Of a stretch of DNA of 64,000 bases, positions 29,906-54,471 are shown in pieces. The notes under the pieces were generated by a model that was not told where the DNA came from, did no database searches, and was given only the letters and a program-made list of their open reading frames with translations. The DNA is taken from UHGV virus genome UHGV-0277313; one strand, 5' to 3'. Every line of letters begins with the position of its first letter. Positions within the stretch are counted from its first letter, which is position 1. Position numbers and translations under genes: made by a program. This DNA comes from a virus.

Positions 29906-32281
29906 CTATTCTTCACGTTTACCATAAAAACCGTTGCCGACAAAATACTTGCTTTTGAAATCCATATTTGGGCAAGGATCTTCAAATTCAAGCTTCAGTG
30001 AAATAAGTTGTGTCGGGACTTCAATAGGTAACTCTTCACGTTCTTCTGGAGGGATAGGGTCACCTTCTTTCATCTCAAGTATTTTGTAGTCGTATGCTTC
30101 ATCAAGTTCACGTTTTAAATAATCCCAATTGCAGTTGCCTCCCTTGATATTTAAAATGAATTTACCATCCTTCTCTTCAAAAGATTTAATATCCATTTCA
30201 CGTCCCCATGATTGACCTAAACCAAAATCAATGAACATTTTGTTTCCGTTCATCCAATCATAAATAACATTTGGTACCGTACCTGCATGAAATTGACAAA
30301 TCTTAAAAACTGGAATTAATTCACCTGGGTATATGTCAAGATATGTTGAATCATGAACACCACCAATCATTACTGATTGTAAATCGTGCATCAACATCTC
30401 TTCTGCAATATGTGTACCTGCAATCCATGCCATACGGCTAGCGGATGAATTGTGTACAAAAACACCAGCTTCTAATGCGAAATTGTGTGTATTTTCATTG
30501 TTTTCAACTTCAATATCATATACTGAAATTTTGTTTGGTAGTTTAATTACTTCAACAGATGTAACTTTATGGTTGTTGAATAATTCTGCTACTAAACGTT
30601 CATAATTTTCTTTTGAAAAGTGCGGAACACTTGAAGCTCTAGCTCCTTCATTAATATAAGACAATCTGTATTCTTCAAAAATATTTTCGAAAGAAGAATC
30701 TAGTAATATATTTTTACCAAGTTTTTCAATAATTTTTAAAGAAAGTTTTTTGAACTTATAAAAAGTTGTATTCTTTCCACATTTTCTGATATTATTTTTC
30801 ATATGCTGTATCTTTTCTAGATCATTACCTTTCCAAATTTTATTTATTGTTTTTCTGGCAGATTCAGACAATTGTTCTTTAGACATACAGAATGCATTTC
30901 CATATGTTTCAATGCGTTTTTTTACCAAAGCTTTAACTGCTTCTCTTTGGTTAAAATCCCAATCTTTATAAAGTTCTTTTCTTTTTTTATTTTTTTCAGC
31001 CATTAATTTAGATTGTTTTTCAGAATGTTCTTGTGTTAAAAAATGTTTCCAAATATTGTTTTCACGTTTGCCTTCTCGTATTTCACGTACACGTTTTTGA
31101 GTGTCAATACTACGTTGTTTTGAAGTATATTTCAAACCCATTTGACGTAAATATTCGTGAACAGATACACCTGTCAGGTCAGCATGTCTTTTAATAGTAG
31201 ACATTACAAGAGATGAATGATATTTTATATGTTCTGCCTTATCCATAATAAGTAAATTATCAGGGTTGTTGTTTAATTTGTTGAAATCTTTGTGATGTAC
31301 TGCTTCATTTTTTTCAATAGTACGATCATAATATTTACTTACTATACGATGTACAGAGGCCCAAGGTTTTGTAGTTAAATCATTTCTTTTAACATATTTA
31401 TACCCTAACTTGTCATATTTTGTATAACAAGGCATTAAGCTTTCATTATTTTTTAAATCGATAGCATGTTTATATGTTCCATCCCTTAACATAAACTGGT
31501 GTTCAGGTGTGCATGTAATAATTTCGCCAGAATCTAATGTAACTTTACAAATTGTGTCAGTTTCTCCAGATTTAAAAGCGTTAATAATTTTGCCAGGTAT
31601 AATTTTACCATCATTACAACAAGATAAAACATACTTATTTTCAAAATTATTCACAAGGTTTTGAATTTCAACAACACTGCCATCTAATAAAGGTATTTTA
31701 GTATCACCAACAAAACATTGGATCCCACTATTCTGGCTTGCATTCATAGCATGATTCAACAACTTCCTGTTGCTTTTAGTGTCAGGCAACATTGCATCTG
31801 GTAACGGTCTAGTACAACCAAATACGTCAACAATATATCCATGCTCACGGGCGAACTTGTGTTGATATTCAACGTATGTTTTAATACCAGGGTATGCCCC
31901 CATCATTTTATCAATAGTTTCTTGAGCTTCTTCGACAGTGCATCCCCACTCTTTTGAAAAGTTGTAGGCTGATTTTCCATAGAGTAGACCAAACATTGTT
32001 GACTTCGCCTTTGAACGCAACCCAGAGTGGTGTTCTTTAATTTCTTTATCACTCATGTTTTTTAGTTCAGGAAAAATATTTCTGGCCGTATTACAATGCA
32101 GATCAGCACCTGACAGTAGTACATCTCGAAGTGTTGGATCACAACTAATAGCTGAAAAAATTCGAATTTCCAAAGTACTGTAGTCGTACGAAACTATTAT
32201 ACCACCACCGTTGTGTCTTGTCAAGCTTTTTATTTTCTTTTTTGCAAAATTTTTATTTTTTATTTCCATTTTTCTAGCCAA
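29906..32281 (-). CDS. family-A DNA polymerase, C-terminal half (motifs A, B, C) interrupted by an intein
   Basis: Motif A DYSTLEIRIF, motif B KSTMFGLLYG and motif C VHDS are present. An insertion from Cys189 to ...VHN is followed by SSAS. Confidence 0.8.
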   Translation of the reverse strand: MARKMEIKNKNFAKKKIKSLTRHNGGGIIVSYDYSTLEIRIFSAISCDPTLRDVLLSGADLHCNTARNIFPELKNMSDKEIKEHHSGLRSKAKSTMFGLLYGKSAYNFSKEWGCTVEEAQETIDKMMGAYPGIKTYVEYQHKFAREHGYIVDVFGCTRPLPDAMLPDTKSNRKLLNHAMNASQNSGIQCFVGDTKIPLLDGSVVEIQNLVNNFENKYVLSCCNDGKIIPGKIINAFKSGETDTICKVTLDSGEIITCTPEHQFMLRDGTYKHAIDLKNNESLMPCYTKYDKLGYKYVKRNDLTTKPWASVHRIVSKYYDRTIEKNEAVHHKDFNKLNNNPDNLLIMDKAEHIKYHSSLVMSTIKRHADLTGVSVHEYLRQMGLKYTSKQRSIDTQKRVREIREGKRENNIWKHFLTQEHSEKQSKLMAEKNKKRKELYKDWDFNQREAVKALVKKRIETYGNAFCMSKEQLSESARKTINKIWKGNDLEKIQHMKNNIRKCGKNTTFYKFKKLSLKIIEKLGKNILLDSSFENIFEEYRLSYINEGARASSVPHFSKENYERLVAELFNNHKVTSVEVIKLPNKISVYDIEVENNENTHNFALEAGVFVHNSSASRMAWIAGTHIAEEMLMHDLQSVMIGGVHDSTYLDIYPGELIPVFKICQFHAGTVPNVIYDWMNGNKMFIDFGLGQSWGREMDIKSFEEKDGKFILNIKGGNCNWDYLKRELDEAYDYKILEMKEGDPIPPEEREELPIEVPTQLISLKLEFEDPCPNMDFKSKYFVGNGFYGKREE
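30449..31717 (-). mobile_element. intein with HNH homing-endonuclease domain inside the PolA C-half
   Basis: The insertion starts CFVGDTKIPLLDGS and ends FVHN followed by S. It contains the HNH motif VHHKDFNKLNNNPDNLLIMDKAEHIKYH. Host motif B precedes the insertion and motif C follows it. Confidence 0.65.
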
Positions 32282-33387
32282 TCAGTAAAATCTTTCATGT
32301 TAAAGAATTCGAGATATTTTAAGTTGTTTTGTTTAGCTACTTCTCGTTTTTTGACATCCAAAACAGTCCAATTATGAATTGCTAAATTATAAAAATTTTT
32401 ACTTCTGCCTTTGAAATTGTTTTCATCAGCTGAAGCCTTCCATTTATTAACGAGTTTAATGTCTTCAATATTGTTTTTATCAAAAGGATGAGGTCCATGC
32501 GTCCACATTCCTTGATATTCAATAAATAAATCCAAAGAAGGAATATAAAAGTCACATTTATACGGATATCTGTCTTCCATATATTGATCTTTAACCTCGT
32601 TACCAAATTTTTCTTGTAATAGTTTTAATATTTCAACTTCTTCACTTGAGTAGTTAAAAGAGTTGTTTAACTTTTTAGTTGCATACTCTTTTTCACGAAT
32701 TTTTTTATTAAACTCGTCACCGCCGCCATTAGAAGGCCACAGTTGTTTAAACTGATCTGATTGTGAAAAGTATTCGACACCGTAACGTTCCTTCATGGTT
32801 TCTTTACGTTTGTTAATATCGCCGAATTTGTTGCCATATTTTTCGAGACGAGTTTCCTGACTTTTTTCTTGAAATTCTTTTACTTGCATAGCATTTTCGA
32901 CACCATAACGTTCTTTAATGGTTTCTTTAGCTTTTTTCTGATTTTCAGCATTAGAAAAAGGTGATTTTCCGTCCCATTTTTCAAGTGTCTTTTTATGAGT
33001 ATCTTTATTTTGAAGATTATATGCAACACCGTATTTTTTAATTGTAGATTGAACGCTACGTTTCAAGCGAAAATCTTTAGCGTGTTCAGCGCAGCAAGCA
33101 CTGTAAGTGACTTTAGCTTTATTAAACATGCCAATTTTACCGCAAGTACATGTTGCAGTTTCTACGATTTCTTCGACATTACCAATACTTTTCCACAAAA
33201 ACAATTCAAGATTGTTTGGAATATATTTAGTATGCAAGTTATCAAGAATTTGCTTGCATGCAGCTTTGTTTATAGAATTACCACGTTGTAATTCATCATG
33301 AAGTGTATGAAGATTAGGAAGGCATGTTTCCACACATTCTTTAAATTCTTCAACAGTCACATCTTGTCGTTTATTATAGTCAACCAT
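32260..33387 (-). CDS. homing-endonuclease-like protein with DUF559/Vsr-like PD-(D/E)XK domain and repeated N-terminal modules
   Basis: C-terminal CDFYIPSLDLFIEYQG, plus three or more approximately 35-aa repeats of the KERYGVEN..Q type. Confidence 0.55.
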   Translation of the reverse strand: MVDYNKRQDVTVEEFKECVETCLPNLHTLHDELQRGNSINKAACKQILDNLHTKYIPNNLELFLWKSIGNVEEIVETATCTCGKIGMFNKAKVTYSACCAEHAKDFRLKRSVQSTIKKYGVAYNLQNKDTHKKTLEKWDGKSPFSNAENQKKAKETIKERYGVENAMQVKEFQEKSQETRLEKYGNKFGDINKRKETMKERYGVEYFSQSDQFKQLWPSNGGGDEFNKKIREKEYATKKLNNSFNYSSEEVEILKLLQEKFGNEVKDQYMEDRYPYKCDFYIPSLDLFIEYQGMWTHGPHPFDKNNIEDIKLVNKWKASADENNFKGRSKNFYNLAIHNWTVLDVKKREVAKQNNLKYLEFFNMKDFTDWLEKWK

Positions 33388-35365: not shown

Positions 35366-38005
35366 TTATGCAATGTTGAATGTTGGATAACGTGATTTGA
35401 CATAAGGATGAATTTTGTCATCTTTATCTGTATACACGTAGAACAACTGTTTATCAGCGATTTGCGAACCACAAACCAAAGGCATATCTTCTTCAGCAAT
35501 AGGTTGCATCATTTCACCATTTGGCATTCTGAAATTGTAAATATTGATTACAATTTTTTCAGGAGCGAACAGATTGTTTTCTTCAATTTTATCAAGTGGT
35601 GAAGTATAGTCTTGACAAATGATCATGCCAGCCCATTGTGGTGTTGTATCCCAATGGTCGCATGAACAATTTGTAAAGTTCACTGTCATTGAAGTGTTTG
35701 TTCTGTTTGACAAGCGCAATACGTTTGATACATGTTCAAAGTAGCAATTATTAAAGTTAACAATTGCACCAGCTTGAGTACCAAAAATTGAAACAGCATT
35801 GTTTGTAAAGTTACCACGGAAGTTGCAATTTTCAAACAAGATGTTTTTAGCTAATTTATCACCAGCCAAACCAATTTCAATACAGTTATATAAGGTTGCA
35901 TCAATATTCATATTTCTGAAAGTAATTGTTTCAGAATCGCTGACAGCAACAACTGTATTTCCGCTAGATTTCTTGAATTCACCAGTGATTGTTGTATCAA
36001 TCATACGAGTTTCTTCAGCAGCAGAAACTTTTACACGGGCGTCGTTTGTGACTGTAGCGCCTTTTAGATCAACTGATTTACCTGTTGCACTCAATGTTGC
36101 AGCAACGTTACCTGAAATAACATAGTCTTTTGTTGTATCAGACAATGTTGTAGGTTCAGTTGTTTCAATTGTAACAGGTTCAATTGATGTTTTCGACAAT
36201 TGAGAAACACGTTCTTCAAGAGCAGTTAAGCGTGTCAAAGCGGATTCAGCTGAACCAGACGCTGATACAGCAGTTTGTTTAACTGAATTCAATTCTGATT
36301 TATCAGCTTTCAGATTGATAGAACCGTTCAAACCTTCAACTTCTGTCGTTAATTCAGCTTTATCAGCTTTTGTATTAACGGTTTCAGTTAAGGCTTCAAC
36401 ATCAGCTTTAGCAGCTTTTGTTTCTAATGTTGAATTGATACCTGAAACAGAGGATGTCAATTCATCTTTATCAGCCTTCAGAGCCAAACCAGAAGTTAAT
36501 TCTTCTTTAGAAGCGAGGCCTGAAAGATCAATACTCGCAACTTTTTCATCAACTTCAGATTTTGAATAAACTTCAGATTTTGCAGCTTTCAGTTCGACTT
36601 TTCCTGACAGTGCTTCGACTTCGGTTTTATCGGCTTTTAAAGCTAAATCTTTATCTGTTGCAATAACGTCATTGTCATTGATGGTAGCCGCGTCTTTTGA
36701 ATTCAGGTTCAAGTGAACTTTAACTGAACCAAAATCAGCAACGTCCCATTTTGACAACATAGCTAGATTTGCACCGTCACCATTTGTCATGACACCAGAA
36801 AGAGCACCATGATTTTCCATCTGAATAAATTTGCGACCTTCATAATCACTGAAAGTAACAACTTTATCTTTATTGACATCAAGCTGATTCTCGTTGAGGG
36901 TTAAGTTTTCAGACGCTGCTAATTTGTCTTGCTTTTTAGCAACTTCATCCATCGCGGCTTTTTCAGCAGCTTTAGCACGTTCAGCTTCTAGTTGTAGATC
37001 TGAAGCAACAGCGCCAACTTTTTCATTGACTTCTGTCTTTTCAGCAAATGTTGACAGATCAATTGTTTCAGAAAGTTTATCCCATTCTGAACCATCCCAT
37101 GCATAATTGGCACCAGTTGATTTAACATTGTAAACATCGCCAATTTCAGCATCAGAAGGTAAGTCATTTGTTGTTTCCACTTGACCTTTATATTTCATAA
37201 AGGAACTTGTTTTAGCATCAATTTCCGCTTTTGTGTAAGCATCGGTGATACCATAACCTTCAAGTGTTGTTGCTTTATCAGCTTTTTTGTTTAGTGTTAC
37301 TGACAGTTCAGCTTTCACAGTTTCAGCAGATGATTCAATTTGAGAAGTTGTTGTATCTGAATTCCAATAATTATCAGCAAGATTCTTTTTATCAGCATTC
37401 AAATCAGATTCGATTTTAGATAAATTTGAACCTAAAGTGTTAACTGTTGTTTGGTCAGCCTTTAGATCTAATTTTTCAGAAATAGTTGTCATTTCTGATT
37501 TGTCAGCTTTTTCAGCTAAAGAAGAATCAAGCTTGCCATCTAAATCTGAAACTGAAAGTTTAACTTCAGCAATAGCAGAAGTATTTTCAGCAACTTTCCG
37601 TTCCAATTCAGCTGTTGAACCACCACTTCCAGATTGTTCAACCCAATTAACAAACCCACCTTCAACAACAGAAAGGACTTTCCCTTCCATTCCTTCAGAA
37701 GAAGGTAAGCATTTTCCGGTTGTTGTTAAATCAGTATTTTCAGCAACATACCGACCGTCTTCTTTATACAGTTTTGTGTATGTGTTTTTGACACGAGCAC
37801 CATTACGAGCTAAATGAACTGTAATAGCAACACTGCTATCAAGTTTAATTTCACCCATATCAGATTGATAGCCTTCACGCGAAACGATCCATTTAACAAT
37901 CGTTCCTTCAGGGACTTCAATTTGATTGCGAGCAACTTCATTTAACTTAACGCTTGCGTCAGAAACGTTATCCACGAATAATTTAAACTTGCAAGTTGTA
38001 GCCAT
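35366..38005 (-). CDS. tail fibre/tailspike-like protein with C-terminal right-handed beta-helix (pectate-lyase-like) domain
   Basis: Repeated NCxF/NFxN rungs (NCNFRGNF, NFNNCYFEH, NFTNCSCDHW) at the C-terminus. The central region has repeated LKADK coiled-coil units. Confidence 0.7.
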   Translation of the reverse strand: MATTCKFKLFVDNVSDASVKLNEVARNQIEVPEGTIVKWIVSREGYQSDMGEIKLDSSVAITVHLARNGARVKNTYTKLYKEDGRYVAENTDLTTTGKCLPSSEGMEGKVLSVVEGGFVNWVEQSGSGGSTAELERKVAENTSAIAEVKLSVSDLDGKLDSSLAEKADKSEMTTISEKLDLKADQTTVNTLGSNLSKIESDLNADKKNLADNYWNSDTTTSQIESSAETVKAELSVTLNKKADKATTLEGYGITDAYTKAEIDAKTSSFMKYKGQVETTNDLPSDAEIGDVYNVKSTGANYAWDGSEWDKLSETIDLSTFAEKTEVNEKVGAVASDLQLEAERAKAAEKAAMDEVAKKQDKLAASENLTLNENQLDVNKDKVVTFSDYEGRKFIQMENHGALSGVMTNGDGANLAMLSKWDVADFGSVKVHLNLNSKDAATINDNDVIATDKDLALKADKTEVEALSGKVELKAAKSEVYSKSEVDEKVASIDLSGLASKEELTSGLALKADKDELTSSVSGINSTLETKAAKADVEALTETVNTKADKAELTTEVEGLNGSINLKADKSELNSVKQTAVSASGSAESALTRLTALEERVSQLSKTSIEPVTIETTEPTTLSDTTKDYVISGNVAATLSATGKSVDLKGATVTNDARVKVSAAEETRMIDTTITGEFKKSSGNTVVAVSDSETITFRNMNIDATLYNCIEIGLAGDKLAKNILFENCNFRGNFTNNAVSIFGTQAGAIVNFNNCYFEHVSNVLRLSNRTNTSMTVNFTNCSCDHWDTTPQWAGMIICQDYTSPLDKIEENNLFAPEKIVINIYNFRMPNGEMMQPIAEEDMPLVCGSQIADKQLFYVYTDKDDKIHPYVKSRYPTFNIA

Positions 38006-38062
38006 AGGCTTTCTCCGTTAAGAATTTAGTTTCTTCAAATTCAAGAACGGTTTTTTAATTGT

Positions 38063-38467
38063 TCAATCTTGCTTTAGCTTCGTTTCGTCAACTGCACCAA
38101 ATTGAATATGAGTTATTGTACCGTCATCATCAGAATAATAAACGTTTTTAATTCCAACATGCCTAATGATTTTTTCACACATAGGGCAAGGTTTTGCACA
38201 ACCAACAACTTTATCTTTAGAGTAACGATACACTAGAATTGAACAACCTTTTAGTTTATTCCAATCAACTTTTAACAGGGCAGATTGTTCAGCATGCAAA
38301 GATTCAGGCCAATGACGATGTTTCATAGGAATGCTAGAGCTACGAATGTCATTATAACCACGAGAAAAAATTCGTTTTCCTTTAAAAATAATAGCTCCAA
38401 TACGAGGGTAGCAAGTAGATTTTTTAGCTTCTTCAATAGCTGCATTAACAATAGATTGATAGATCAT
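38063..38467 (-). CDS. dCMP deaminase (cytidine/deoxycytidylate deaminase family)
   Basis: Zinc-binding motifs HAEQSAL and PCPMC. Confidence 0.8.
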   Translation of the reverse strand: MIYQSIVNAAIEEAKKSTCYPRIGAIIFKGKRIFSRGYNDIRSSSIPMKHRHWPESLHAEQSALLKVDWNKLKGCSILVYRYSKDKVVGCAKPCPMCEKIIRHVGIKNVYYSDDDGTITHIQFGAVDETKLKQD

Positions 38468-38539
38468 TTAGTTCGTCTTTGTTCCTGTTAAACAATAAAT
38501 AATTTATATCACACACATAGGATATTGTCAACAGTAATT

Positions 38540-39040
38540 TTAAATTTTATCTAAAACGTCTTCATAGCTTTTAAAAACAATATCGCTTAGTGCATCTTTT
38601 GCGTTGTAGTATGTTTTGCAATAGTCATGCTCAAAGTCAATTGGTTCATTTATTTGATGTTTGCAAAAATCTTTTGTTTTGGGTTCGTATAGAAGAAAAG
38701 TTGTAGGAAGTCTAACAACTAACATTGGAGGATTTTGTTCAGTTGCACTTTTCCATGCAAAGAATTGTACTATAAATCCTTTGTATTGTTGTTTGATAAA
38801 AGAAGACATTTCATTAAATAAATCATAGTCTGTATCAAAATAAATTGTTGTACTATCAGTGTCTTCAGTAAAGCTTTTGATTGTTTCAAAATTAGCGAAA
38901 TTGTCTTCAAAATTTAGTTCGTTAGTTAAATTGTCTTTAGAAATAGTTAGACAGATAGCTTTACCGTTAATCGCATAGTAGCTAAACAGATAATAGACGT
39001 CATCAAATTTTGATTCATTGCAAACTTTAAAATATTCCAT
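38540..39040 (-). CDS. paralog family protein 1 of 7
   Basis: C-terminal ..YEDVLDKI and shared internal blocks. Confidence 0.55.
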   Translation of the reverse strand: MEYFKVCNESKFDDVYYLFSYYAINGKAICLTISKDNLTNELNFEDNFANFETIKSFTEDTDSTTIYFDTDYDLFNEMSSFIKQQYKGFIVQFFAWKSATEQNPPMLVVRLPTTFLLYEPKTKDFCKHQINEPIDFEHDYCKTYYNAKDALSDIVFKSYEDVLDKI

Positions 39041-39049
39041 AAAAATCCT

Positions 39050-39529
39050 TTAAATTTCATTAAGAACATCTTGATAGCTGAACATTTCAGGTGATTTCAA
39101 TGCATCAGAAACAGTATCATAGTATTCAATGATTTTAAAATTTTCTGTATTCTTTCCAGACCATAGCGGTTTGGCATCAAAATCATTTGCTAATCTATAT
39201 ACTTGAACAGCATCAATGTCAATTATAATTATTGAAGTATGCAACAAACCAATCACAGTGTGTCCGGTATTTTTATCAAGTAATGTGCAAATTACAGGTT
39301 CAATATTATTTTCCTCTAAAGTATCGTCTAAATGTGACAGCATTTCTTTCAAGGAATTGTTGTGAATAATTTTATATTCTTTATTTGGAATTTTAGAAGG
39401 AAATATATATAGACGATTGTCGTCTATATAAAGTGCTTGAACTGTTGTTGTATCTTCTGTTTTATTAAACACTTCTAAAACATAAATAATATTTTTTGAG
39501 AAGATAATATCAAATTGTTTTATTTGCAT
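39050..39529 (-). CDS. paralog family protein 2 of 7
   Basis: C-terminal ..YQDVLNEI. Confidence 0.55.
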   Translation of the reverse strand: MQIKQFDIIFSKNIIYVLEVFNKTEDTTTVQALYIDDNRLYIFPSKIPNKEYKIIHNNSLKEMLSHLDDTLEENNIEPVICTLLDKNTGHTVIGLLHTSIIIIDIDAVQVYRLANDFDAKPLWSGKNTENFKIIEYYDTVSDALKSPEMFSYQDVLNEI

Positions 39530-39541
39530 GTCCTGTTCCTT

Positions 39542-40054
39542 TTAGATTTCGTTTAAAATGTCAATATAATTTTTAAAGATAGGATCTTGAAAGGCGTCTT
39601 CTATGTTTGTATAAAGTTTAACATAATTATTTTCATCTTGTAATTTAGATTCAGCGCTTGTTGAACTTAAGACTTCGAACTTTTTACTGTTTGGTGAATA
39701 AATTAAATATTGGTCATCAATGTTAATTAACAATTTTGGTTTACTGTATGCACTATCACAAAATACAAATACGTCAGAAGTATTAAGCTTGAATATTCTT
39801 TTATACGATTGTTGTATGTCATTCAACATTTCAACATCTGTATCAAAATCTGTTTTGACATAATCGTCCAAATGTTCGTCAGTAAAGTTTTTAATAATCC
39901 AGATGTTAGCATGGTGATAATCACGATTATTTGTTGTAAGAGAGAAGTTTAATGTGTTGTTAACTTCAACACCTTCAATAACATAAAATGTAATGAATGT
40001 GTCAAGTACATCAATAGTTTGTCTTGTTTTTGAATACTTACAATATTTTGTCAT
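39542..40054 (-). CDS. paralog family protein 3 of 7
   Basis: N-terminus MTKYCKYSKTRQT, C-terminus FQDPIFKNYIDILNEI. Confidence 0.6.
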   Translation of the reverse strand: MTKYCKYSKTRQTIDVLDTFITFYVIEGVEVNNTLNFSLTTNNRDYHHANIWIIKNFTDEHLDDYVKTDFDTDVEMLNDIQQSYKRIFKLNTSDVFVFCDSAYSKPKLLINIDDQYLIYSPNSKKFEVLSSTSAESKLQDENNYVKLYTNIEDAFQDPIFKNYIDILNEI

Positions 40055-40080
40055 TGTTATATTCCTATTTAAATTTCGTT
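40017..40080. repeat. 64-bp repeat, copy A (identical to 41567..41630)
   Basis: gtttgtcttgtttttgaatacttacaatattttgtcattgttatattcctatttaaatttcgtt spans the gene start, the intergenic spacer and the neighbouring gene's end. Confidence 0.85.
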
Positions 40081-40584
40081 AAGTACATCAACATAGTTTT
40101 TAAAAATAGGATCGTTGAAAGCTTGCAGAATATCACTGTATTCTCGTATGTAATAATCTTCATTTTGAAGTTTCATGTTTAAAAGATATCGTGACGTAAA
40201 AAAGATTGTTTGTTTTTTAGGTGTATAAACTAAAGAATTGTTTTTATAATTTATAGCAATATTTGGTATACTTTTAAGTGATTCAGCATATACCATAATG
40301 TTGTTTGTATCAATATTATTTGCTTTCTTTATGGAATTTTCAAGATCTTCGAACATTTTGATGTCATTGTCAAAATCAACCTTCTGTAAATTTTCATTTG
40401 GAGTTTTAGGGTCGAAATTAAAACTTTGCGAAATGAGTAAATCATAGTAGTTATCTTTTTTATAATAAGTCAATAAAGTTTGAATTACACTACATTCGTT
40501 GTTCGTTGAAATACAATAATAGCTTTCATACATATCAACAAATTGTAAATGCTCTTCTCGATAATATTTATAAAAATTGCTCAT
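40069..40584 (-). CDS. paralog family protein 4 of 7
   Basis: C-terminal FNDPIFKNYVDVLNEI. Confidence 0.6.
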   Translation of the reverse strand: MSNFYKYYREEHLQFVDMYESYYCISTNNECSVIQTLLTYYKKDNYYDLLISQSFNFDPKTPNENLQKVDFDNDIKMFEDLENSIKKANNIDTNNIMVYAESLKSIPNIAINYKNNSLVYTPKKQTIFFTSRYLLNMKLQNEDYYIREYSDILQAFNDPIFKNYVDVLNEI

Positions 40585-40593
40585 GTCAAACCT

Positions 40594-41100
40594 TTAAATT
40601 TCATCTAAAACATTTATATAACTTAAAAAGATTGGATCTTTAAAAGCATCTGAAATATCACTATATGTCTTAAAATAATCATATTGTTTATTGATTTCTT
40701 CTCGAATGTTGGCAACAAAATCCAAAATGATATTTTTATAAATTGGGGAGTATATCAAAATATCATTTTCAATAGGTATAATGATTTTAGGAGTTTCTTT
40801 CAGATCTGCCATTTGCCAGACATATACTTCATAATTCTTTATTTTATACATATCTGTATATAAACGTTGTATATCTTCAAATAATTCGACATCACTTGAA
40901 AAGTTGATTCTTTTATAATCATTATCTAAACTATTAAGAATTTGTATGTTGCTGCTAGTGTTGACAACATACCCATTAGAACCGTCAACGTATTGTGAAC
41001 ATACAAAAGCAAAACATTGTTTATCAATCACATAAAAATTTCTTACGTGATGTCCGCTTTTATTTGTATTCTCAAAAACATATTTACAAAATTTTGTCAT
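40594..41100 (-). CDS. paralog family protein 5 of 7
   Basis: C-terminal FKDPIFLSYINVLDEI. Confidence 0.6.
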   Translation of the reverse strand: MTKFCKYVFENTNKSGHHVRNFYVIDKQCFAFVCSQYVDGSNGYVVNTSSNIQILNSLDNDYKRINFSSDVELFEDIQRLYTDMYKIKNYEVYVWQMADLKETPKIIIPIENDILIYSPIYKNIILDFVANIREEINKQYDYFKTYSDISDAFKDPIFLSYINVLDEI

Positions 41101-41604
41101 TTAAATCTCGTTTAATACGTCAATGTAATTTGTGAATATTAAATCTTTTAAAGCAGTTTCAACAAAGTTGTATTTTTGATGATAGGCAATCTCATTTTCA
41201 TCAAACCATTGATCAACGACATATCCACTGACAGCATTAACATCGTCTGTTGCAGGTGTATATATAATAGCGTCACTTTGAATGAACATTATAAGTTTAG
41301 GTTTAGAATAGATATCATTGAATTGAATTACTAAATTCTCAACTGTCTTCTTTTCATAAAAGCTTTTATATTGATTTTGTAAATCAGAAAACAACTCTAT
41401 TGCATTATTAAAATCTGTTTTGTTTTTTTCATCTAAAGAGACAATAATTTCATCCGCATTTCCTGAAGTAATATTATATGTAGGAAAGACACGCTCAACA
41501 GAAAATTGTACTAAAATATATTTTTTATTAATAATATAATAGGCTGTATAATGTTTTCCTGTATTTGTTTGTCTTGTTTTTGAATACTTACAATATTTTG
41601 TCAT
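41101..41604 (-). CDS. paralog family protein 6 of 7
   Basis: N-terminus MTKYCKYSKTRQT, C-terminus ..NYIDVLNEI. Confidence 0.6.
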   Translation of the reverse strand: MTKYCKYSKTRQTNTGKHYTAYYIINKKYILVQFSVERVFPTYNITSGNADEIIVSLDEKNKTDFNNAIELFSDLQNQYKSFYEKKTVENLVIQFNDIYSKPKLIMFIQSDAIIYTPATDDVNAVSGYVVDQWFDENEIAYHQKYNFVETALKDLIFTNYIDVLNEI

Positions 41605-41630
41605 TGTTATATTCCTATTTAAATTTCGTT
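41567..41630. repeat. 64-bp repeat, copy B
   Basis: Identical to copy A when read by eye. Confidence 0.85.
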
Positions 41631-42137
41631 TAAAACATCAATGTAATTTATAATAGAAGGGTCTTTGAAAGCTTCAGCAACTGTTTCATAACGTTTCAAA
41701 TATACAGCATCTTCTGTCATAAATTTAGGTATTTTGGTTGCTTTTATACTATTAACAGAATCATTCTCAAATGAATAGTAAAAACTATAATCAGTATCAT
41801 TTATTGCAAATAATATGGCAGGACGCTTGTTAATATCGGTTAAAATAACAAAAATTTGTAAAGGTAAATTTTCGAAATGTTTTTTAAACCCATTGACAAA
41901 GTCTTTAAACAATTCCTCAACATTATCAAACATGATGGTTTTATAATCTAAAAATGAAAGAGGTACATCTAGTGTAGGTGATGTATGTACGTCATATTTT
42001 AAATAATCATCTTTTAAATACTTTGTAAAAACAGATATAAATGCCGTTTTGTTAACTATGTATTTATTATATTCAGATTCTTCTTTAAATCGTGACGAAG
42101 TTGCTTCTTCATAATATTTAAAATATAGATTATTCAT
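41619..42137 (-). CDS. paralog family protein 7 of 7
   Basis: C-terminal FKDPSIINYIDVLNEI. Confidence 0.6.
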   Translation of the reverse strand: MNNLYFKYYEEATSSRFKEESEYNKYIVNKTAFISVFTKYLKDDYLKYDVHTSPTLDVPLSFLDYKTIMFDNVEELFKDFVNGFKKHFENLPLQIFVILTDINKRPAILFAINDTDYSFYYSFENDSVNSIKATKIPKFMTEDAVYLKRYETVAEAFKDPSIINYIDVLNEI

Positions 42138-42279
42138 TTTGATTCCAGTTATGAATTTACCTTTATGTTTGAAGAACCTTTTTTCTTGTTTTTTAGCTTA
42201 AAGTAAAACTAAAGGCGAGTCAATTAAAATTGGCTCGCCTTGATACTCATAAAAACACATTTCTTTAAAAAGAATAAAT

Positions 42280-43887
42280 TTAGACATTATTTTCAGCAAG
42301 TGAAACTTTTGTATAAGAATTGATAACATCAGTAGTATTACCAACACCTAAGTTACCAAGTTTGTTATAACCAACTAAATAAGCATCACCTTTTGTTGTT
42401 ACATACCCAGAGTTGTACATTGTCATTCCGTGTACATAATTTAGCGTGAAATCTGCAACATTACTGTTAATAAGTACAAGACCTGTTTCAGCAGAATTTC
42501 CAACGACATTGTTTGATGTATTATTAGAATATTTATATAATTCACCGTTTTCAGTTAAAGCTAACAGTGCATATTTATTATTTTGCCCACCAGATGAAAC
42601 ATCAAAAATGTGTTGCAATTTTTTCACTTTTGCTATTAAAACATTTGACGGATAGTAACTATATGTATTGATATAGGAAAGGTGACATAAAGAACCATCA
42701 TCTAATAAAACCAAACCACCAGAATATAGTGAATCTGTTAAGCTAAGTATATTTTTAATATTTTTAGCAATTTCTTTTTTGGAAGAATCTGTATAAATAG
42801 AATAACTATGGCTTCCAGGGCTATTTGAAGAGTAGTAATATTCTTTTATATTTATTTTATTGTTAGCTTCATAAAGGACATCCAAATGATAAACTGTCGA
42901 ACTATAATGTTTATATACAATTGATAGTATCTTCATACTTCCTGACATTAATTTGAAAGAGTATGATTTAGGTGAATATTTTGCCGAAAAATCAGAATAA
43001 GGGCCAGTACAGTATAATTTATGATCATTAGTAATGTAATAAGTCGCCCAATCAGCAAATTGGTATATGTCTTTTACGTTTGTCGCTAGTTCAATAAATG
43101 TTGTTGCTTCTTGTCCATTATTGCTTAACAGACGATCAGAGTCACTTCCGATACCAAAAAGTGTATCATCATTTGTTATATAGAAAGCATTCACGTAACC
43201 TTCATATATTGTTTTTACATAATCAGCAATTTTTTCAAAATCCCCAGTTTTTGAATAATATTGCTTTGAAGATATAAATAATTCATCGTTTTCTGTTACA
43301 TACATTGGCATTAAATATGTCCCAGAGTATGACATTCCCAAACAAGCATCGCGAACATTTTCAGCCACTTTTGTAAATTCAGTAACTGCATTTGTTGATG
43401 AAGGATTACCTAAAAGACGTGAATGACCAGCGGCATATAAATCACCATTATCCATAATCAAATAAGTGCCATATTGGCCACATAATTTAATTTTCTTAAC
43501 GCCTTGACCTAAACGTTGCAACAGAATTTGAATCTCTTTATTTGTATCAGCAATTGTTGAGCCTGATAAGTCTTGCATGCCGACATGTTTTGCAGTATAG
43601 TTAATTTGTTCGTTTTGGTTCGTAATAACCATATTACCGAAATTCAATAACTCATTACCGTCATTATCTGTAAATGTCATTTCAGAATCATTTGGTTTAG
43701 GAGAGAATTTAGTAATCTTTAAATCACCTAAATCAACTTTTCCTGATGTTGTTTTAATTTCAGAAATCTTTTGTGCATAGTTTTCAAAAGGTGCAGTTTT
43801 ATTAATATCTGAACCTTTTTTCACAATAGACTGATATATGTCTTTTTTAATTTTAAGAATTTCTTTAATCTGCTCAATATTTGACAT
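42280..43887 (-). CDS. large hypothetical protein, possibly tail fibre/host-recognition (repeat-containing)
   Basis: 535 aa, Ser/Asn/Tyr-rich repeats and an N-terminal coiled coil. Confidence 0.5.
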   Translation of the reverse strand: MSNIEQIKEILKIKKDIYQSIVKKGSDINKTAPFENYAQKISEIKTTSGKVDLGDLKITKFSPKPNDSEMTFTDNDGNELLNFGNMVITNQNEQINYTAKHVGMQDLSGSTIADTNKEIQILLQRLGQGVKKIKLCGQYGTYLIMDNGDLYAAGHSRLLGNPSSTNAVTEFTKVAENVRDACLGMSYSGTYLMPMYVTENDELFISSKQYYSKTGDFEKIADYVKTIYEGYVNAFYITNDDTLFGIGSDSDRLLSNNGQEATTFIELATNVKDIYQFADWATYYITNDHKLYCTGPYSDFSAKYSPKSYSFKLMSGSMKILSIVYKHYSSTVYHLDVLYEANNKINIKEYYYSSNSPGSHSYSIYTDSSKKEIAKNIKNILSLTDSLYSGGLVLLDDGSLCHLSYINTYSYYPSNVLIAKVKKLQHIFDVSSGGQNNKYALLALTENGELYKYSNNTSNNVVGNSAETGLVLINSNVADFTLNYVHGMTMYNSGYVTTKGDAYLVGYNKLGNLGVGNTTDVINSYTKVSLAENNV

Positions 43888-44386: not shown

Positions 44387-45442
44387 ATGACTTATTTGAC
44401 TGAAGAAGAAAGAGCTGCTAGAAAACAGTTGGCCCAACAAAAATACAAAAACAAAGAAGAAGTAAAAATAAGAAAAAGATTCAATGATTGCAACAGTCGA
44501 AGAAGACGGTTGGGTCTTTCTGTTTTCACATTTAATGAATGGCAGGAGTGGTATAAAAACAAGCATGCGCCAAAAGGATCATTGCTTCATAAATATAAAC
44601 AGTTTATTCAAGGTAGAAAAAAGAGAAAGTTGGAAATAATTTCGTTTGAAAAATATTGCGAATTGATTGCTGAACGTAATAGAAACAAATCAGCTAATGC
44701 TGAAGAGAGACGTTTACGCGCAAATCAAAAGGCAAAAGAAAGATATCATTCCAACGAAGAAGTGCGAAAAAGAAAAATGGAATATAGTAAGAAATACAGA
44801 AAAGAACATCCAGAAGTTCGAAGTAAATGTTATTATAAAAAGGCATACGAAAAGTATAAAGAAAAAGTTGCAAACATGTCTGAAGCAGAACGTGAGCTGT
44901 TGAAAAGAAAAATTTATGAAAATAAACAGAGATTTTTAAAAAATATGTCCGAAGAAAAACGTTTGGAATATAAAAAGAAACATGCTGCTCGTTCAAGAGA
45001 CTATTGGCGTAATTTGTCACCTGAAAAACGTCTGGAACTTAAAGAGAGAAAAGCTGAATACTATAAAAATCGTTGCAAAAATAATTTGGAAAAAGTATAT
45101 GAACATTTGGTAAAACAACGTGAAAGAACAGGTATAAAGAAAAAGGATAGTTTTGAAGATTACTTGAAAAAGAAACGTGATATGGATAATAAAACAAATC
45201 ACTATAATGAAGACTTAAGTTTTCTTAATGAAAAATTCCCGTTAAGTCAAAAATTATTGTCTATTGAAGAATACAATAGAAGAACATTTATAATGCAAAA
45301 ATTACAACGTGTCCTTAAACATTTAGGTTTATCAACTAAAATTTTGATGAATTATAAAAGAGGTCACTATACAATGCAACAACTAAAGACTTTTTTAGAA
45401 ATGTACCAAAATAAAGAATGGAAAAATAATGAACGAAAATGA
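44387..45442 (+). CDS. highly basic K/R/E-rich repetitive protein
   Basis: Repeated units of the N.SEEKRLEYKKKH / NLSPEKRLELKERK type. Confidence 0.55.
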   Translation: MTYLTEEERAARKQLAQQKYKNKEEVKIRKRFNDCNSRRRRLGLSVFTFNEWQEWYKNKHAPKGSLLHKYKQFIQGRKKRKLEIISFEKYCELIAERNRNKSANAEERRLRANQKAKERYHSNEEVRKRKMEYSKKYRKEHPEVRSKCYYKKAYEKYKEKVANMSEAERELLKRKIYENKQRFLKNMSEEKRLEYKKKHAARSRDYWRNLSPEKRLELKERKAEYYKNRCKNNLEKVYEHLVKQRERTGIKKKDSFEDYLKKKRDMDNKTNHYNEDLSFLNEKFPLSQKLLSIEEYNRRTFIMQKLQRVLKHLGLSTKILMNYKRGHYTMQQLKTFLEMYQNKEWKNNERK

Positions 45443-47453: not shown

Positions 47454-47834
47454 ATGGAATATAGTTATTTGCTTTGTGAAGTAGGTACTCAAGATAGAGT
47501 TATATTTTTTAAGACTTCAAGAAAGTTCAGAAAAACAAATGTCGTAACTACAGTAAACGAGTTTATGGATTTATGTGAATTGGAATTACAACAAAATAAT
47601 GTAATAAAAGTTCATGGGTACTATACAAAAAGAACACATGTTATTCATTATTATATAGACAACACAACTGTTTATACTGAAAGATCTTTGACTGTTACAG
47701 TTGGCTGGAAAACTTTACGTGATAAGTTTAAAAGAAGATTTGGATGTGATGTAGAGATACTTCATAAAAAATATTGTTCGTACATAATTGTCCAAAATGC
47801 TAGTATTGGAAGTAATCTATTGAAAGATATTTAA
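47454..47834 (+). CDS. hypothetical protein, tandem paralog A
   Basis: About 65% identical to 47852..48235. Confidence 0.55.
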   Translation: MEYSYLLCEVGTQDRVIFFKTSRKFRKTNVVTTVNEFMDLCELELQQNNVIKVHGYYTKRTHVIHYYIDNTTVYTERSLTVTVGWKTLRDKFKRRFGCDVEILHKKYCSYIIVQNASIGSNLLKDI

Positions 47835-47851: not shown

Positions 47852-48235
47852 ATGGAATATTGTTTTTTGTTTGGTGAAGTAAGAGGAACTCAAGATAAAT
47901 TTATGTTTTTTAAATCTTCATGTAAGTTTAAAGAAACAAATATTGCCAACACAGTAAACGAGTTTATGAATTTATGTGAACTGGCATTGCAACAGAATAA
48001 TGTAATAAAAATTTATGGACATTATACAAAAAAGTCACATGTTACTCATTTTTATGCAGAAAGCACAACTATTTATACAGAAAAACCTCAACATGTCTAT
48101 GTTGGTTGGAAAGTTTTACGGGATAAGTTTAAAAGAAGGTTCGGGAGAGATGTAGAAATACTTCATGAAAAATATTATGGATCAATCATTGTTAAAAATA
48201 CTAATATTGGAAGTAATTTATTAAAAGATATTTAA
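47852..48235 (+). CDS. hypothetical protein, tandem paralog B
   Basis: Shares NVIK(V/I)(H/Y)G(Y/H)YTK and WK.LRDKFKRRFG blocks with paralog A. Confidence 0.55.
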   Translation: MEYCFLFGEVRGTQDKFMFFKSSCKFKETNIANTVNEFMNLCELALQQNNVIKIYGHYTKKSHVTHFYAESTTIYTEKPQHVYVGWKVLRDKFKRRFGRDVEILHEKYYGSIIVKNTNIGSNLLKDI

Positions 48236-49765: not shown

Positions 49766-50549
49766 GATAAACAGGGATTTAAGGTATCAGAGGAAACTGG
49801 TATCATAGGTAAAGCTTTTATTAAGCATTGTTTGACATATAAGACAGTGTTTAATAAAAGCTTTATTTGTTAATGGTACGGTATCCGATACCTGATAAAC
49901 AGTTAAGCTGTTGTATCACTTGTTAATAAAGAGTGGTATAGCGGGTTAACGACCTTTAATCAGTCATTATAAAGTGGTAAAGCAAAGTAATGACGAAATG
50001 ATTAAAGGAATTATCAGGTTCACGTGTGAAAAAGAAAGCACGGCGGAACTATATACAGAATAAATAAAGTGAATGAAATGTCGTTTCAATTTTGTTGAGT
50101 TTAGAAACGACTGAAAACTTTAATCTTAAAATCAATTAAGGTTAAAGTGAAACAATCTATATTATTTAATATAGATTTAAACAGTTAAGGCAAGACTGAA
50201 AAGAAATGCCTTGATAGGTAATAACTCAACGGGATCAAATTCCCTTAATGAAAATAGATGAATTAAAAATAGTTTGTTTATTTTTCGTTAAGGGTGAAAA
50301 TACGGTGGTGAGCCAATCGACAAAAAGTTTCACGACCGTAAAACAAACCGTCTGAAATGGTTTGGATTTGTCTAGGTCAGTTTACTGATTTGAACTCACT
50401 CCTGCTTTAAGTGTATGTGAGAAGTAGGCTGTGGAACAAATCTGTATTGAAATAGATTACTCTAAGTCATTTCAGATATTTTAAGAACAGATTGGAATAA
50501 ACTAAAATAGAATGAAATGGTTTATTCCGAAACAAGAAAGGAAAAGAAA

Positions 50550-50963
50550 ATGATTAGAAACTTCACGCCGCATAAAATCAATCTGTTCGCCGAAGACGGC
50601 AGAATATTGAAAGTATTCGAGCCGGAAGGGCTTGCAAGGGCGGAACAAAAGGCCATCATCGTTGACGAAATTCAATTCGGGAACGACATTGTTCCCGTCA
50701 AAAAGATGATTTTCGGGAGCGTCGAAGGACTTCCCGAAACGGCGGGAGAATACGATAAATTTATCGTGTCGTCCATCGCCGCACAGGCGGCGATGGAGAC
50801 GAACCATCCGTTGAAAAATCAGCTCTTGGTCGTTGCAGACCCTGTTCGCAACGAAGACGGACAAATTATAGGCTGTAAAGCCTTTTCGACTTTCCGAGAT
50901 GAGAATGATCTCGGCGAGATTATGAGCTTGGCTAACAAGCTCAACGACAAATACGCTCGGTAA
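50550..50963 (+). CDS. hypothetical protein (first gene of the higher-GC module)
   Basis: SD AAGGAAA upstream of MIRNF. Confidence 0.55.
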   Translation: MIRNFTPHKINLFAEDGRILKVFEPEGLARAEQKAIIVDEIQFGNDIVPVKKMIFGSVEGLPETAGEYDKFIVSSIAAQAAMETNHPLKNQLLVVADPVRNEDGQIIGCKAFSTFRDENDLGEIMSLANKLNDKYAR

Positions 50964-50970
50964 TATTAGA

Positions 50971-51010
50971 TTTAACAAGGTGGGAGTTGTCCAGATTCCC
51001 ACCCTTTAAA
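50971..51010 (+). promoter_or_regulatory. conserved intergenic stem-loop element, copy 1
   Basis: TTTAACAAG, then stem ggtggga ... tcccacc, then CTTTAAA. Confidence 0.55.
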
Positions 51011-51054
51011 TCTATTCCACAGTGGGGTGGATCCAACCAGAAAGGGAAAATAAT

Positions 51055-51348
51055 ATGACAATCAAAAAAGAAAAAAATTTCACCGTCACCGTAACTTACT
51101 TCAATGATTATAAAGGGGAATGGGTGACTGTTCCCCTGTCCGAAGCCCCGGACGAGTTGATAAACCCGTCTGCAACCGTGGCAGATATTGCCAATATGCA
51201 CGCTGAAATGCGTGCAAGTTTAAAGGCGTTGTACGACGCCTACGATGAAATGGAGCAAATAGAGTATCAGGAATGGTACTCTGAACAACAGGCGGCGGCG
51301 CAGAAAGCCGCCGAAATAGAAATGGCGTACAAACAAAGGTACGCCTAA
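51055..51348 (+). CDS. hypothetical protein
   Basis: RBS AGGGAAAA. Confidence 0.5.
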   Translation: MTIKKEKNFTVTVTYFNDYKGEWVTVPLSEAPDELINPSATVADIANMHAEMRASLKALYDAYDEMEQIEYQEWYSEQQAAAQKAAEIEMAYKQRYA

Positions 51349-51398
51349 ATGTTAATGATAGGACAAGATTGGACAGAAATTGTTTAGTCTTGCCCTAT

Positions 51399-51449
51399 CT
51401 AGTTTCATTTAGTGTAACTAGTTTTTATAATTGCACTAAATGAAACTAG
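51399..51449 (+). promoter_or_regulatory. 16-bp perfect inverted repeat (operator-like) flanking a TATAAT hexamer
   Basis: ctagtttcatttagtg - N19 containing TATAAT - cactaaatgaaactag. Confidence 0.55.
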
Positions 51450-51484
51450 ATCAGAGTGATCTAGTACAGCAAGGAGTTGCAAAA

Positions 51485-51832
51485 ATGAAAGCACAAAATT
51501 ACACATATAGAACGCCGTTCGGAGACGAACTGGCGATCATAACAGGAAAATCAGCAGCACGGGGACGTGATAACCTTCGCAACACCCGCAAAGCCCTAGC
51601 AGCTGCAAACGATATCATATCCACTTTACAAGCGGATGTTAAAGAAAGGCACGCTTGTACAGTTCGTTTGCGTCTTCGCAAGAACAAAGAAATTGCCAGT
51701 TTGTTGGCAGAGGTTGCCAGTTTGAAAGCTGAAAATGAAGCTTTGAAAGATGCGGCGGAGATGTGGCAAACTATTGCCAAATCGAGTGTGACGGCATCTG
51801 GAGAGCTGTTGGATGCTCTCGAAAATGACTAG
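51485..51832 (+). CDS. hypothetical coiled-coil protein
   Basis: SD AAGGAG. LKAENEALKD coiled coil. Confidence 0.55.
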   Translation: MKAQNYTYRTPFGDELAIITGKSAARGRDNLRNTRKALAAANDIISTLQADVKERHACTVRLRLRKNKEIASLLAEVASLKAENEALKDAAEMWQTIAKSSVTASGELLDALEND

Positions 51833-51835
51833 ATT

Positions 51836-51880
51836 GAATTTAACAAGATGGGGATTTGAATAAGATCCCCATCCTTTAAG
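51836..51880 (+). promoter_or_regulatory. conserved intergenic stem-loop element, copy 2
   Basis: TTTAACAAG, stem gatggggat/atccccatc, then CTTTAAG. Confidence 0.55.
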
Positions 51881-51904
51881 TTCAACTAATGAAAGGAAAC
51901 AGAA

Positions 51905-52198
51905 ATGAATATGGAAAAATACAACTATCGTTTCGGGGCAACAATGACCGAGATTATCAAAAATCTCGGTGTTGAAACGGCATTGCCAAACCCTGATTTG
52001 TCTCTGACGAACTTGACACGTGCTGTCAAGACGCACGTGCTTCAAACGCTTGAAAAAGACGGAAAGCAATACGTTATCGTCTCTGATTGCGGCGAGTATG
52101 CTATCGCCGAAATTAAGGCGATTGGTTCTGCGGAAGATGTTGCCAAATTCGTCAAAGAAAATGACTTGGGAGAGGAGTTGATCTCCGAAGTCATTTAA
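51905..52198 (+). CDS. hypothetical protein
   Basis: SD AAAGGAAA. Confidence 0.55.
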   Translation: MNMEKYNYRFGATMTEIIKNLGVETALPNPDLSLTNLTRAVKTHVLQTLEKDGKQYVIVSDCGEYAIAEIKAIGSAEDVAKFVKENDLGEELISEVI

Positions 52199-52202
52199 TC
52201 AG

Positions 52203-52247
52203 CTTAACAAGGTGGAATTGAATTTGATTTAGTTCCACTCTTTAAAC
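52203..52247 (+). promoter_or_regulatory. conserved intergenic stem-loop element, copy 3
   Basis: CTTAACAAG, stem ggtggaa/ttccact, then CTTTAAAC. Confidence 0.5.
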
Positions 52248-52272
52248 TGATTTTTAATTAGGGGGTGCGCAA

Positions 52273-52476
52273 ATGATAAAAAAGATCTTGAAGTTTATGA
52301 ATGATGAAATGATGATCCGTTATGACATAATGTATCCCATAGAATATGGGTACATTGAGAACGGTAAAGTGATATGTTCGAAATGGCGTGCACGGCGTCG
52401 TTTGGTCATTGATTGGTTTTTCGACGTGTGGATGAAAGGCCTTTCTGCTTACTCTTTGAAGAAAGTTGAGGAGTGA
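52273..52476 (+). CDS. hypothetical protein
   Basis: RBS GGGGGTG. Confidence 0.5.
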   Translation: MIKKILKFMNDEMMIRYDIMYPIEYGYIENGKVICSKWRARRRLVIDWFFDVWMKGLSAYSLKKVEE

Positions 52477-52481
52477 TTAAA

Positions 52482-52751
52482 ATGAAGCAATTCGAAATAA
52501 AGATTGTCAATGAACTTTGTGGTGTGCCAGACGAGATGTCGCCTGATACATCACTGACAGCATCACTAAAAGTTGCTATTAACTTTTACGAATGCATTGT
52601 GGAATATCTGTATTTTTCCTATATGCGATTGGAGAATTCGAATTTTCTGAAACGTCCGTGGTGGATGTTTTGGAAAAGTAAAGAAGAATACTTTCGGGAA
52701 CAATACATTCTCGATCGTAAAAGAAGAGGATTAGATCGAAATGCTTTATAG
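52482..52751 (+). CDS. hypothetical protein
   Basis: SD GAGGAG. Confidence 0.5.
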   Translation: MKQFEIKIVNELCGVPDEMSPDTSLTASLKVAINFYECIVEYLYFSYMRLENSNFLKRPWWMFWKSKEEYFREQYILDRKRRGLDRNAL

Positions 52752-53464: not shown

Positions 53465-53465
53465 A

Positions 53466-54461: not shown

Positions 54462-54471
54462 GGAGAAAACA

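Follow-up and report, generated by a model that had tools for sequence, protein, structure and literature searches.

The virus genome UHGV-0277313 was analysed over a stretch of 64,000 nucleotides (the window), which contains at positions 38540–42137, on the minus strand, an array of seven consecutive co-oriented open reading frames (ORFs) encoding proteins of 159–172 residues, exactly as delimited in the initial annotation. The genes are named g1 to g7 by rising coordinate. The first gene of the array is g7 (41619–42137, 172 residues), followed by g6 (41101–41604, 167 residues), g5 (40594–41100, 168 residues), g4 (40069–40584, 171 residues), g3 (39542–40054, 170 residues), g2 (39050–39529, 159 residues), and, in the last position, g1 (38540–39040, 166 residues). 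Six of the genes are of the main type, of which g1, with the tail ...VFKSYEDVLDKI, is the most divergent. The remaining gene, g2, is the lone member of a distinct subfamily marked by an HNxSxKEML motif, an SGKNTENFxII insert, and the tail SPEMFSYQDVLNEI. The intergenic spacers are 0–14 nucleotides long. Shine-Dalgarno sequences of the GGA/AGG type precede six of the seven genes, and the start codon of g5 instead touches the stop codon of g6 (TAAATG). The results of promoter and terminator scans were no different from those expected of shuffled sequence. A perfect palindrome with an 11-bp stem is located inside the coding sequence of g2 (39406–39430, minus strand; TATATAGACGA CAA TCGTCTATATA); it was flagged as terminator-like and may be a product of chance in AT-rich DNA.

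The seven genes are genuine paralogs that are built alike. All seven proteins end with the motif Y-x-[DN]-[VI]-L-[ND]-[EK]-I, already noticed in the initial annotation, and the stop codon follows at once. The same is true of 123 out of 123 distinct full-length sequences of the family. The motif does not occur elsewhere in the window in any frame. The possibility that the tail is common to other proteins of the phage was thus rejected for this window, since the motif is confined to the array. The mean pairwise identity of the seven proteins is 46% in residues 1–10, 17–22% in the body, 35% in the segment preceding the tail, and 57% in the last 16 residues, which bears out at the protein level the description of conserved edges and a divergent middle. 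The reported identity of two N-termini was found in g3 and g6 (MTKYCKYSKTRQT). The invariant or near-invariant residues of the family, in g3 numbering, are Y24, Y148, A154, Y163, D165, L167, E169, and I170, and the conserved polar residues D165 and E169 stand beside the hydrophobic residues Y163, L167, and I170.

The relationship of the paralogs extends beyond the C-terminus. Even without their 40 C-terminal residues, g1 and g3–g7 matched one another in most pairings in BLASTP, with E values from 1e-5 to 1e-17, and g1 matched the hidden Markov model (HMM) of the family with an E value of 1e-39. BLAST links g2 to the other proteins mostly via the tail. Profile-profile comparison connects the g2 subfamily to the main subfamily with an E value of 2e-9 with the tail included, and with P ~0.0015, in register over ~75 columns, without it. 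The membership of g2 in the family is settled because the AlphaFold2 models of g2 and g3 have the same order of structural elements.

The models of g3 (predicted local distance difference test (pLDDT) 82.5, predicted template modelling score (pTM) 0.81) and g2 (pLDDT 91.2, pTM 0.83) both run, in order, through five strands and a helix, four strands and another helix, and finally one strand with two short helices. The predictions show one shared alpha/beta fold, in which a beta-meander with a helix is followed by four strands with a helix and by a strand-helix-helix unit. The short N-terminal segment M-x-K-Y-x-K-Y constitutes the first beta-strand in the g3 model. The tail (D-P-I-F-K-N-Y-I-D-V-L-N-E-I) is predicted to be helical, with a broad hydrophobic face formed by positions i, i+1, i+4, i+5, i+7, i+8, and i+11 and with conserved acidic or polar residues opposite. 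In both models, the pLDDT is ~60 solely in the last ~10 residues. The family proteins are small (~160–185 residues), acidic, and soluble. The seven proteins of the window have isoelectric points of 4.5–5.0 and net charges from -5 to -12, similar to most of their relatives, and none of them contains a transmembrane or hydrophobic segment or a signal peptide. There is no catalytic-looking constellation among the conserved positions, which comprise only Y, A, L, I, D, and E at structural or tail sites. Therefore, the proteins are probably non-enzymatic and cytoplasmic.

Age, selection, and recombination

The seven copies are ancient paralogs under purifying selection. In a neighbour-joining tree, the genes group by type across genomes and not by genome. 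Therefore, the paralogs predate lineages that share only ~70% DNA identity. The orthogroups span genomes of ~70–93% DNA identity, and six of the seven genes have orthologs in divergent relatives: g7 and g6 (both in the related genomes L007, L008, and L027), g3 (in L007 and L027), g5, g2, and also g1 via P0022. The tree of family genes across related genomes contained no orthologs of g4 beyond the lineage of the window itself. The ratio of nonsynonymous to synonymous substitution rates (dN/dS) of orthologs is 0.13–0.3 where synonymous sites are unsaturated, and lower, 0.07–0.19, in the tails. Population variants, of which the 90%-identity cluster of each gene contains ~50 sequences (53 in the case of g7), are polymorphic at 9 of 154 positions in the tail versus 174 of 1019 in the body (p = 1.2e-4), and they exhibit no hypervariable patch. 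The age of the paralogs, the low dN/dS, and the lack of a hypervariable patch contradict the initial annotation, which had described the family as rapidly diversifying and had proposed dN/dS as a check.

The conservation of the tail had been ascribed to concerted evolution. However, the 16 tail codons differ between paralogs by a mean proportion of synonymous differences (pS) of 0.78, which is saturated, and by a mean proportion of nonsynonymous differences (pN) of 0.26 (0.13–0.20 among g3–g7). Synonymous sites are thus saturated, yet there are few nonsynonymous changes, and therefore what preserves the tail is selection acting at the peptide level, not homogenization of the DNA. The tail is the most constrained part of the proteins and plausibly a shared docking element.

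A 64-nucleotide block is exactly identical at 40017–40080 and 41567–41630, as the initial annotation had reported. In the direction of transcription, the first copy runs from the last three codons and stop of g4 through the spacer, with its Shine-Dalgarno sequence, to codon 13 of g3, and the second runs from the last three codons and stop of g7 through the spacer to codon 13 of g6. The independent assemblies L002 (NCBI LR756497.1) and L003 also have the block, at boundaries that are slightly displaced, which rules out an assembly artefact as its source. It is the result of recent gene conversion between the g4|g3 and g7|g6 junctions. The conversion proposed previously thus stands for this one pair of junctions but not as an array-wide process, and no identical runs of at least 20 nucleotides were found between the junctions in L007, L008, and L027.

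The array of L008 contains a hybrid gene composed of a g6 body and a g3 tail, followed by g2, the tail of which is joined to the sequence downstream of g1. Therefore, both deletion junctions are within tail-coding DNA. The tail-coding DNA and the conserved 5' ends of the genes serve as homology patches for unequal recombination, through which cassettes are lost, rearranged, and at times converted.

The 5' third of g3, encoding the N-terminal beta-sheet, contains a tract of allelic recombination (39872–40037, minus strand). Over positions 38401–42320, the window differs from LR756497.1 at 36 positions, 24 of which are in g3, and 20 of these are in the tract. The substitutions alter 15 residues of the sheet with a dN/dS of ~0.8 between genomes that are otherwise 99.5% identical. 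The substitutions are transitions and transversions at all bases, without adenine specificity, and mutagenesis by a diversity-generating retroelement was therefore discarded as their source; the tract was imported. No template repeat of such an element was detected in 38000–42400, and a reverse transcriptase was not sought genome-wide.

Distribution, copy number, and genomic surroundings

An exhaustive search of 1.84 billion cluster representatives with the family HMM retrieved just 26 proteins of 82–188 residues. All 26 belong to one clade of ~300 kb phages, and none (0/26) is fused to another domain. Two word-indexed searches of 5.8 billion clusters gave 14 and 11 matches, and the second of them, made with a broader profile, added one further member. 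Searching IMG/VR with the tail pattern gave 16 loci, 15 of which matched by chance, and the sole true member was found in the 313.8 kb contig L023. Among 50,697 deposited phage genomes, neither nucleotide nor protein comparison gave a match.

No match above threshold was found in Pfam-A (best E 0.0047), PHROGs v4 (best E 0.012), NCBIfam 20, or PADLOC-DB 2 (best match JetB, E 4e-4, for one paralog only); in all four libraries, the hits were well under the curated cut-offs and varied with the paralog. A sequence-profile search of the PDB gave nothing below an E value of 0.1, a Foldseek search of the PDB gave a best E value of 0.055 with TM-scores of at most 0.26, and a structure search of BFVD gave a best E value of 0.01 with query TM-scores of at most 0.31. 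Known anti-defence families (Acr, Ocr/Ard, Tad, Gad, and others) had no match in Pfam and PHROGs, which hold some of them; no dedicated anti-defence library was used. An immunity array of polymorphic toxins was rejected as an identity of the locus: the only hint was a sub-threshold match of g2 to Imm26 (E 0.035, 14.8 bits against a cut-off of 23.3), and no neighbour is toxin-like. Literature searches on the accession and on comparable phage paralog arrays found nothing relevant. The family is undescribed and without known relatives, in agreement with the initial annotation, which could not assign it. It belongs to a familiar kind, the accessory multigene families of phages that have a terminal peptide in common.

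The window is 100% identical to the 277 kb metagenomic scaffold L001 over 19.4 kb, and the shared array block is 97–99.5% identical to L003 (297 kb) and L002 (309 kb). The SbcC proteins of the closest cultured phages, mostly SPO1- or Twort-like phages of Firmicutes, have 27–30% identity to that of the window. Because the contigs of the relatives are that large and the cultured phages are distant, the source of the window is a huge uncultured phage of ~300 kb.

The array occupies the same place in related genomes, in which its copy number varies from three to at least six. Seven copies are present in the window and in L001–L003, and the contig L004, which is incomplete at the array, shows six of them. 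There are five copies in L027–L029, four in L007, three in L008–L010, and three to four in L031 and L034; the 2.9 kb fragment L030 contains at least five and probably six. The gene order also differs, from g7-g6-g5-g4-g3-g2-g1 in the window to g7-g3-g6-g2 in L007 and g7-g6-g3-g5-g2-(g1 remnant) in L027. g1 is missing from L007 and L008, and in L027–L029 the g1-type gene (L027 10526–12149; MQYFKVFQQIIDYYYC-stop) is split after codon 16 by an insertion of ~1.4 kb, after which come the last 63 codons of the gene. The insertion carries an ORF of 437 residues with a precomputed Pfam match to PF27229 SSO2105_N, for which a fresh Pfam scan found nothing. A TnpB gene is inserted within the array of L031–L032. 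Individual copies are therefore dispensable, and the array lies in a hot spot of gene gain and loss within a region of replication and nucleotide metabolism. In contrast to the variable copies, exactly one g2-type gene is present wherever a related locus extends over the deaminase-proximal end of the array. Where the deaminase is on the contig, the g2-type gene is directly upstream of it or separated from it only by a g1-type gene or remnant, and this adjacency is kept even in a rearranged lineage.

The deoxycytidine monophosphate (dCMP) deaminase gene (38063–38467, minus strand; Pfam PF00383, E 4e-14) follows the array on its downstream side as a neighbour conserved in every lineage. The initial annotation was right to place it beside the array but not in its placement of a fibre-like gene on the other flank. 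That flank is occupied by a gene for an RCC1-like beta-propeller protein (42280–43887, minus strand), and the fibre-like gene (35366–38005, minus strand, 879 residues) is beyond the deaminase. The RCC1-like gene is a presence/absence cassette without obligate linkage to the array: the segment 42319–43911 is precisely missing from L002 and L003, in which the array persists. Its position is occupied by an ORF of 84 residues in L008–L010, by two ORFs of 530 and 554 residues without a Pfam match in L007, L028, and L029, and by two unrelated small ORFs in L027. Synteny of the fibre-like gene with the deaminase and the array holds across all lineages, and the gene encodes 896 residues in L027 and 1011 residues in L031. 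Judging from its sequence, the 879-residue protein of the window may consist of a weakly head-fibre-like N-terminus, long coiled-coil-looking repeats rich in K-A-D-K, and a Cys/Asn-rich C-terminal part resembling a beta-helix.

The genes around the array are mainly those of replication and nucleotide metabolism, including SbcCD, NrdD/NrdG, dUTPase, the dCMP deaminase, a family-A DNA polymerase co-oriented with the array, and an IS605-type transposase. The polymerase gene is fragmented (29906–33387, minus strand) and includes an ORF of 791 residues with polymerase motifs and an intein bearing an HNH domain. The intein segment (30449–31718) is cleanly absent from L002 and L003 and present in L001, L004, and L008. 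Just upstream of the polymerase ORF, an ORF of 375 residues (32260–33387) matches homing-endonuclease families in PHROGs and DUF7487 in Pfam. IS605-type OrfB/TnpB (Cas12f-like) genes are scattered in the phage clade: one is at 5124–6311 (plus strand) of the window, one is the copy inside the array of L031–L032 (7725–8930 of L031), and one adjoins the DNA polymerase in L008 and L009 (19375–20486 of L008). On the other side of the array, divergently oriented from the block of the array and the RCC1-like gene, an extremely Lys/Arg/Glu-rich repetitive protein of 351 residues (44387–45442, plus strand) is conserved in all relatives (343–351 residues) and matches nothing in Pfam or PHROGs. Apart from the array, the window has a single pair of paralogs, a tandem duplication at 47454–47834 and 47852–48235 (plus strand), encoding proteins of 126 and 127 residues with 67% protein and ~80% DNA identity. 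At ~50 kb, the G+C content rises from ~29–32% to ~38–43% and stays high through the end of the window (~50000–64000). This part encodes a MoxR-type AAA+ ATPase (60727–62025) and a DUF2201 metallopeptidase/VWA-like protein (62089–63363).

Possible roles of the array proteins

Based on the conservation pattern, the predicted structures, and the variability of the array, a function of the family can be proposed tentatively. We lean towards the paralogs being modular non-enzymatic binders, in which the C-terminal helix docks to one shared partner and the divergent bodies provide specificities, probably in an accessory interaction with the host; this proposal falls somewhat short of an even chance of being correct. 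The last ~12 residues (...Y-x-D-V-L-N-E-I-COOH) would form an amphipathic acidic helix that is always terminal and is not confidently packed on the body. The helix may function as a docking peptide tethering every paralog to one common partner, while the bodies would bind different targets, so that the proteins could serve as modular binders or adaptors. The accessory role may be in counter-defence or host takeover. An accessory and dispensable nature is suggested by the varying copy number, the split g1, the TnpB gene inside the array, and the inconstant RCC1-like cassette. The role in anti-defence or superinfection exclusion suggested by the initial annotation is a reasonable guess from context.

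Several observations weigh against the binder proposal. The analysis found no partner of the tail, and the motif is absent from all other proteins of the 64 kb window. The low pLDDT of the terminal helix is also expected from self-association or weak packing. None of the homology and fold searches (Pfam, PHROG, NCBIfam, PADLOC, PDB, and BFVD) points to a binding function. Purifying selection and old orthologs are unusual for arms-race effectors, and the conserved site beside the dCMP deaminase could reflect a housekeeping role in nucleotide metabolism or replication. Lastly, the presumed timing of expression derives from gene order only.

A more specific form of the binder proposal is that the paralogs are interchangeable adaptors of a new fold, each plugged by the invariant C-terminal peptide (...YxDVLNEI-COOH) into a single hub and each capturing a different host protein, for example a defence factor, with its body. 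The hub could be a host AAA+ protease, a replisome clamp, or a phage machine. We regard this form as unlikely.

It is rather unlikely, although less so than interchangeable adaptors, that the tails join the paralogs to each other in a homo- or hetero-oligomer of one g2-type and several main-type subunits. Such a complex agrees with the presence of one g2-type and at least two main-type genes in every related locus covering the deaminase-proximal end, with the tight operon, which favours co-translation, and with the amphipathic tail helix, the wide hydrophobic face and low monomer pLDDT of which are typical of oligomerization helices. However, the 3, 4, 5, or 7 copies of close relatives, which have kept differing orthogroups, are hard to fit into a fixed complex, and the conserved acidic polar face of the helix suggests recognition of a basic surface, which these acidic proteins do not have. 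Partners outside the family could be replisome components. T4 gp43, gp33, and gp55 bind gp45 by their C-terminal tails, and the I-D-V-L core of the array tail is, we presume, loosely similar to the L-D-F-L clamp-binding tails of T4. The array proteins could therefore be accessory factors of replication or of deoxynucleotide supply, with the hydrophobic-acidic tail bound to a hub such as the sliding clamp or the single-stranded DNA-binding protein. The site directly upstream of the dCMP deaminase, kept even in a rearranged lineage, and the co-orientation with the DNA polymerase are in line with this role. Nevertheless, it is improbable, as no clamp or clamp loader was found in the window, individual copies are dispensable, the tail lacks a canonical QL[SD]LF-type motif, and there is no obvious rationale for seven different clamp binders.

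Another alternative, of low probability, is that the proteins are associated with the virion, either packaged and ejected or attached to fibres. The synteny between the array and a head-fibre-like or fibre-like gene, conserved across the lineages without exception, and the frequent adjacency of the RCC1-like propeller gene speak for it, as does the precedent of phage T4, in which diverse proteins with anti-restriction roles share only a conserved targeting sequence (PMC3012670). Nonetheless, the RCC1-like gene is dispensable, no structural or tail PHROG matches the family, and the array is situated amid genes of nucleotide metabolism and replication, co-oriented with the DNA polymerase. Furthermore, the proteins are acidic, unlike the basic DNA-contacting internal proteins of T4, and their conserved signal is C-terminal, never with any residues after it. 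A rapidly diversifying arms-race family with edges homogenized by concerted evolution is largely refuted and has little chance of being correct. The single recent 64-nucleotide conversion tract with its strain-specific boundaries, the dense allelic tract in the N-terminal sheet of g3 (dN/dS ~0.8), and the variation in copy number would fit such a history, but the old orthogroups, the ortholog dN/dS of 0.13–0.3, the saturated synonymous sites in the tail, the population polymorphism without a hypervariable patch, and the lack of long identical runs between the junctions of L007, L008, and L027 contradict it.

Huge phages hold many unexplained multicopy gene families, and the one described here is unusually tractable: its seven proteins are small and soluble, their models are confident, and no relatives of their fold are known. 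The eight-residue C-terminal peptide conserved family-wide provides a direct bait for the partner, and the natural variants with three to seven copies already reveal dispensable members. The segment encoding the peptide was also shown directly to be a crossover point for the loss and reordering of cassettes. Should the partner turn out to be a hub of the host or part of a defence system, the family would establish a new type of modular effector in phages; otherwise, it merely adds to the orphan families restricted to a single clade.

Comparison with known systems

The array proteins resemble tail and tail-fibre assembly chaperones in that they are small and encoded near fibre-like or propeller genes. 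The differences are the seven copies and the lack of a match in Pfam, PHROG, or NCBIfam, including any structural or tail PHROG, the profile check that had been suggested for this identity. Chaperones were rejected because of the lack of a profile match and of obligate pairing, since the array persists without the RCC1-like gene. The similarity to the PUR/Whirly-like fold, built from repeats of four beta-strands and a helix, has scores at noise level, covers one repeat, and is not accompanied by a Pfam PurA match; the strong acidity of the array proteins argues against nucleic-acid binding.

The internal proteins of phage T4 are a highly diverse set that counters host defences and has only the targeting sequence conserved (PMC3012670). 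The T4 loci and the array both encode several small accessory proteins that have one short conserved terminal peptide in common and differ in the rest. However, the peptide of the array is at the extreme C-terminus, whereas the capsid-targeting sequence of T4 is N-terminal and is cut by the prohead protease. The dominant conserved element of the array is thus not an N-terminal targeting sequence. Its protein bodies are homologous, of one predicted fold, and acidic, and the locus is in a region of replication and nucleotide metabolism.

Adaptor families that combine a variable target-binding body with a conserved C-terminal docking element include the ankyrin/PRANC F-box proteins of poxviruses and the bacterial protein SspB, which has a C-terminal ClpX-binding peptide. 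There is no sequence or fold relationship between these adaptors and the array proteins, and nothing links the array to proteolysis or ubiquitin-like systems. The likeness is in the organization: a folded variable body is combined with a short conserved C-terminal element, which in the array would bind one hub. As in the poxvirus ankyrin/PRANC proteins, the array is a multicopy paralog family in an accessory region of the genome. If the paralogs do function as interchangeable adaptors, the array would be a phage counterpart of the poxvirus ankyrin/F-box or SspB-type logic, in which the DNA encoding the tail doubles as a handle for shuffling.

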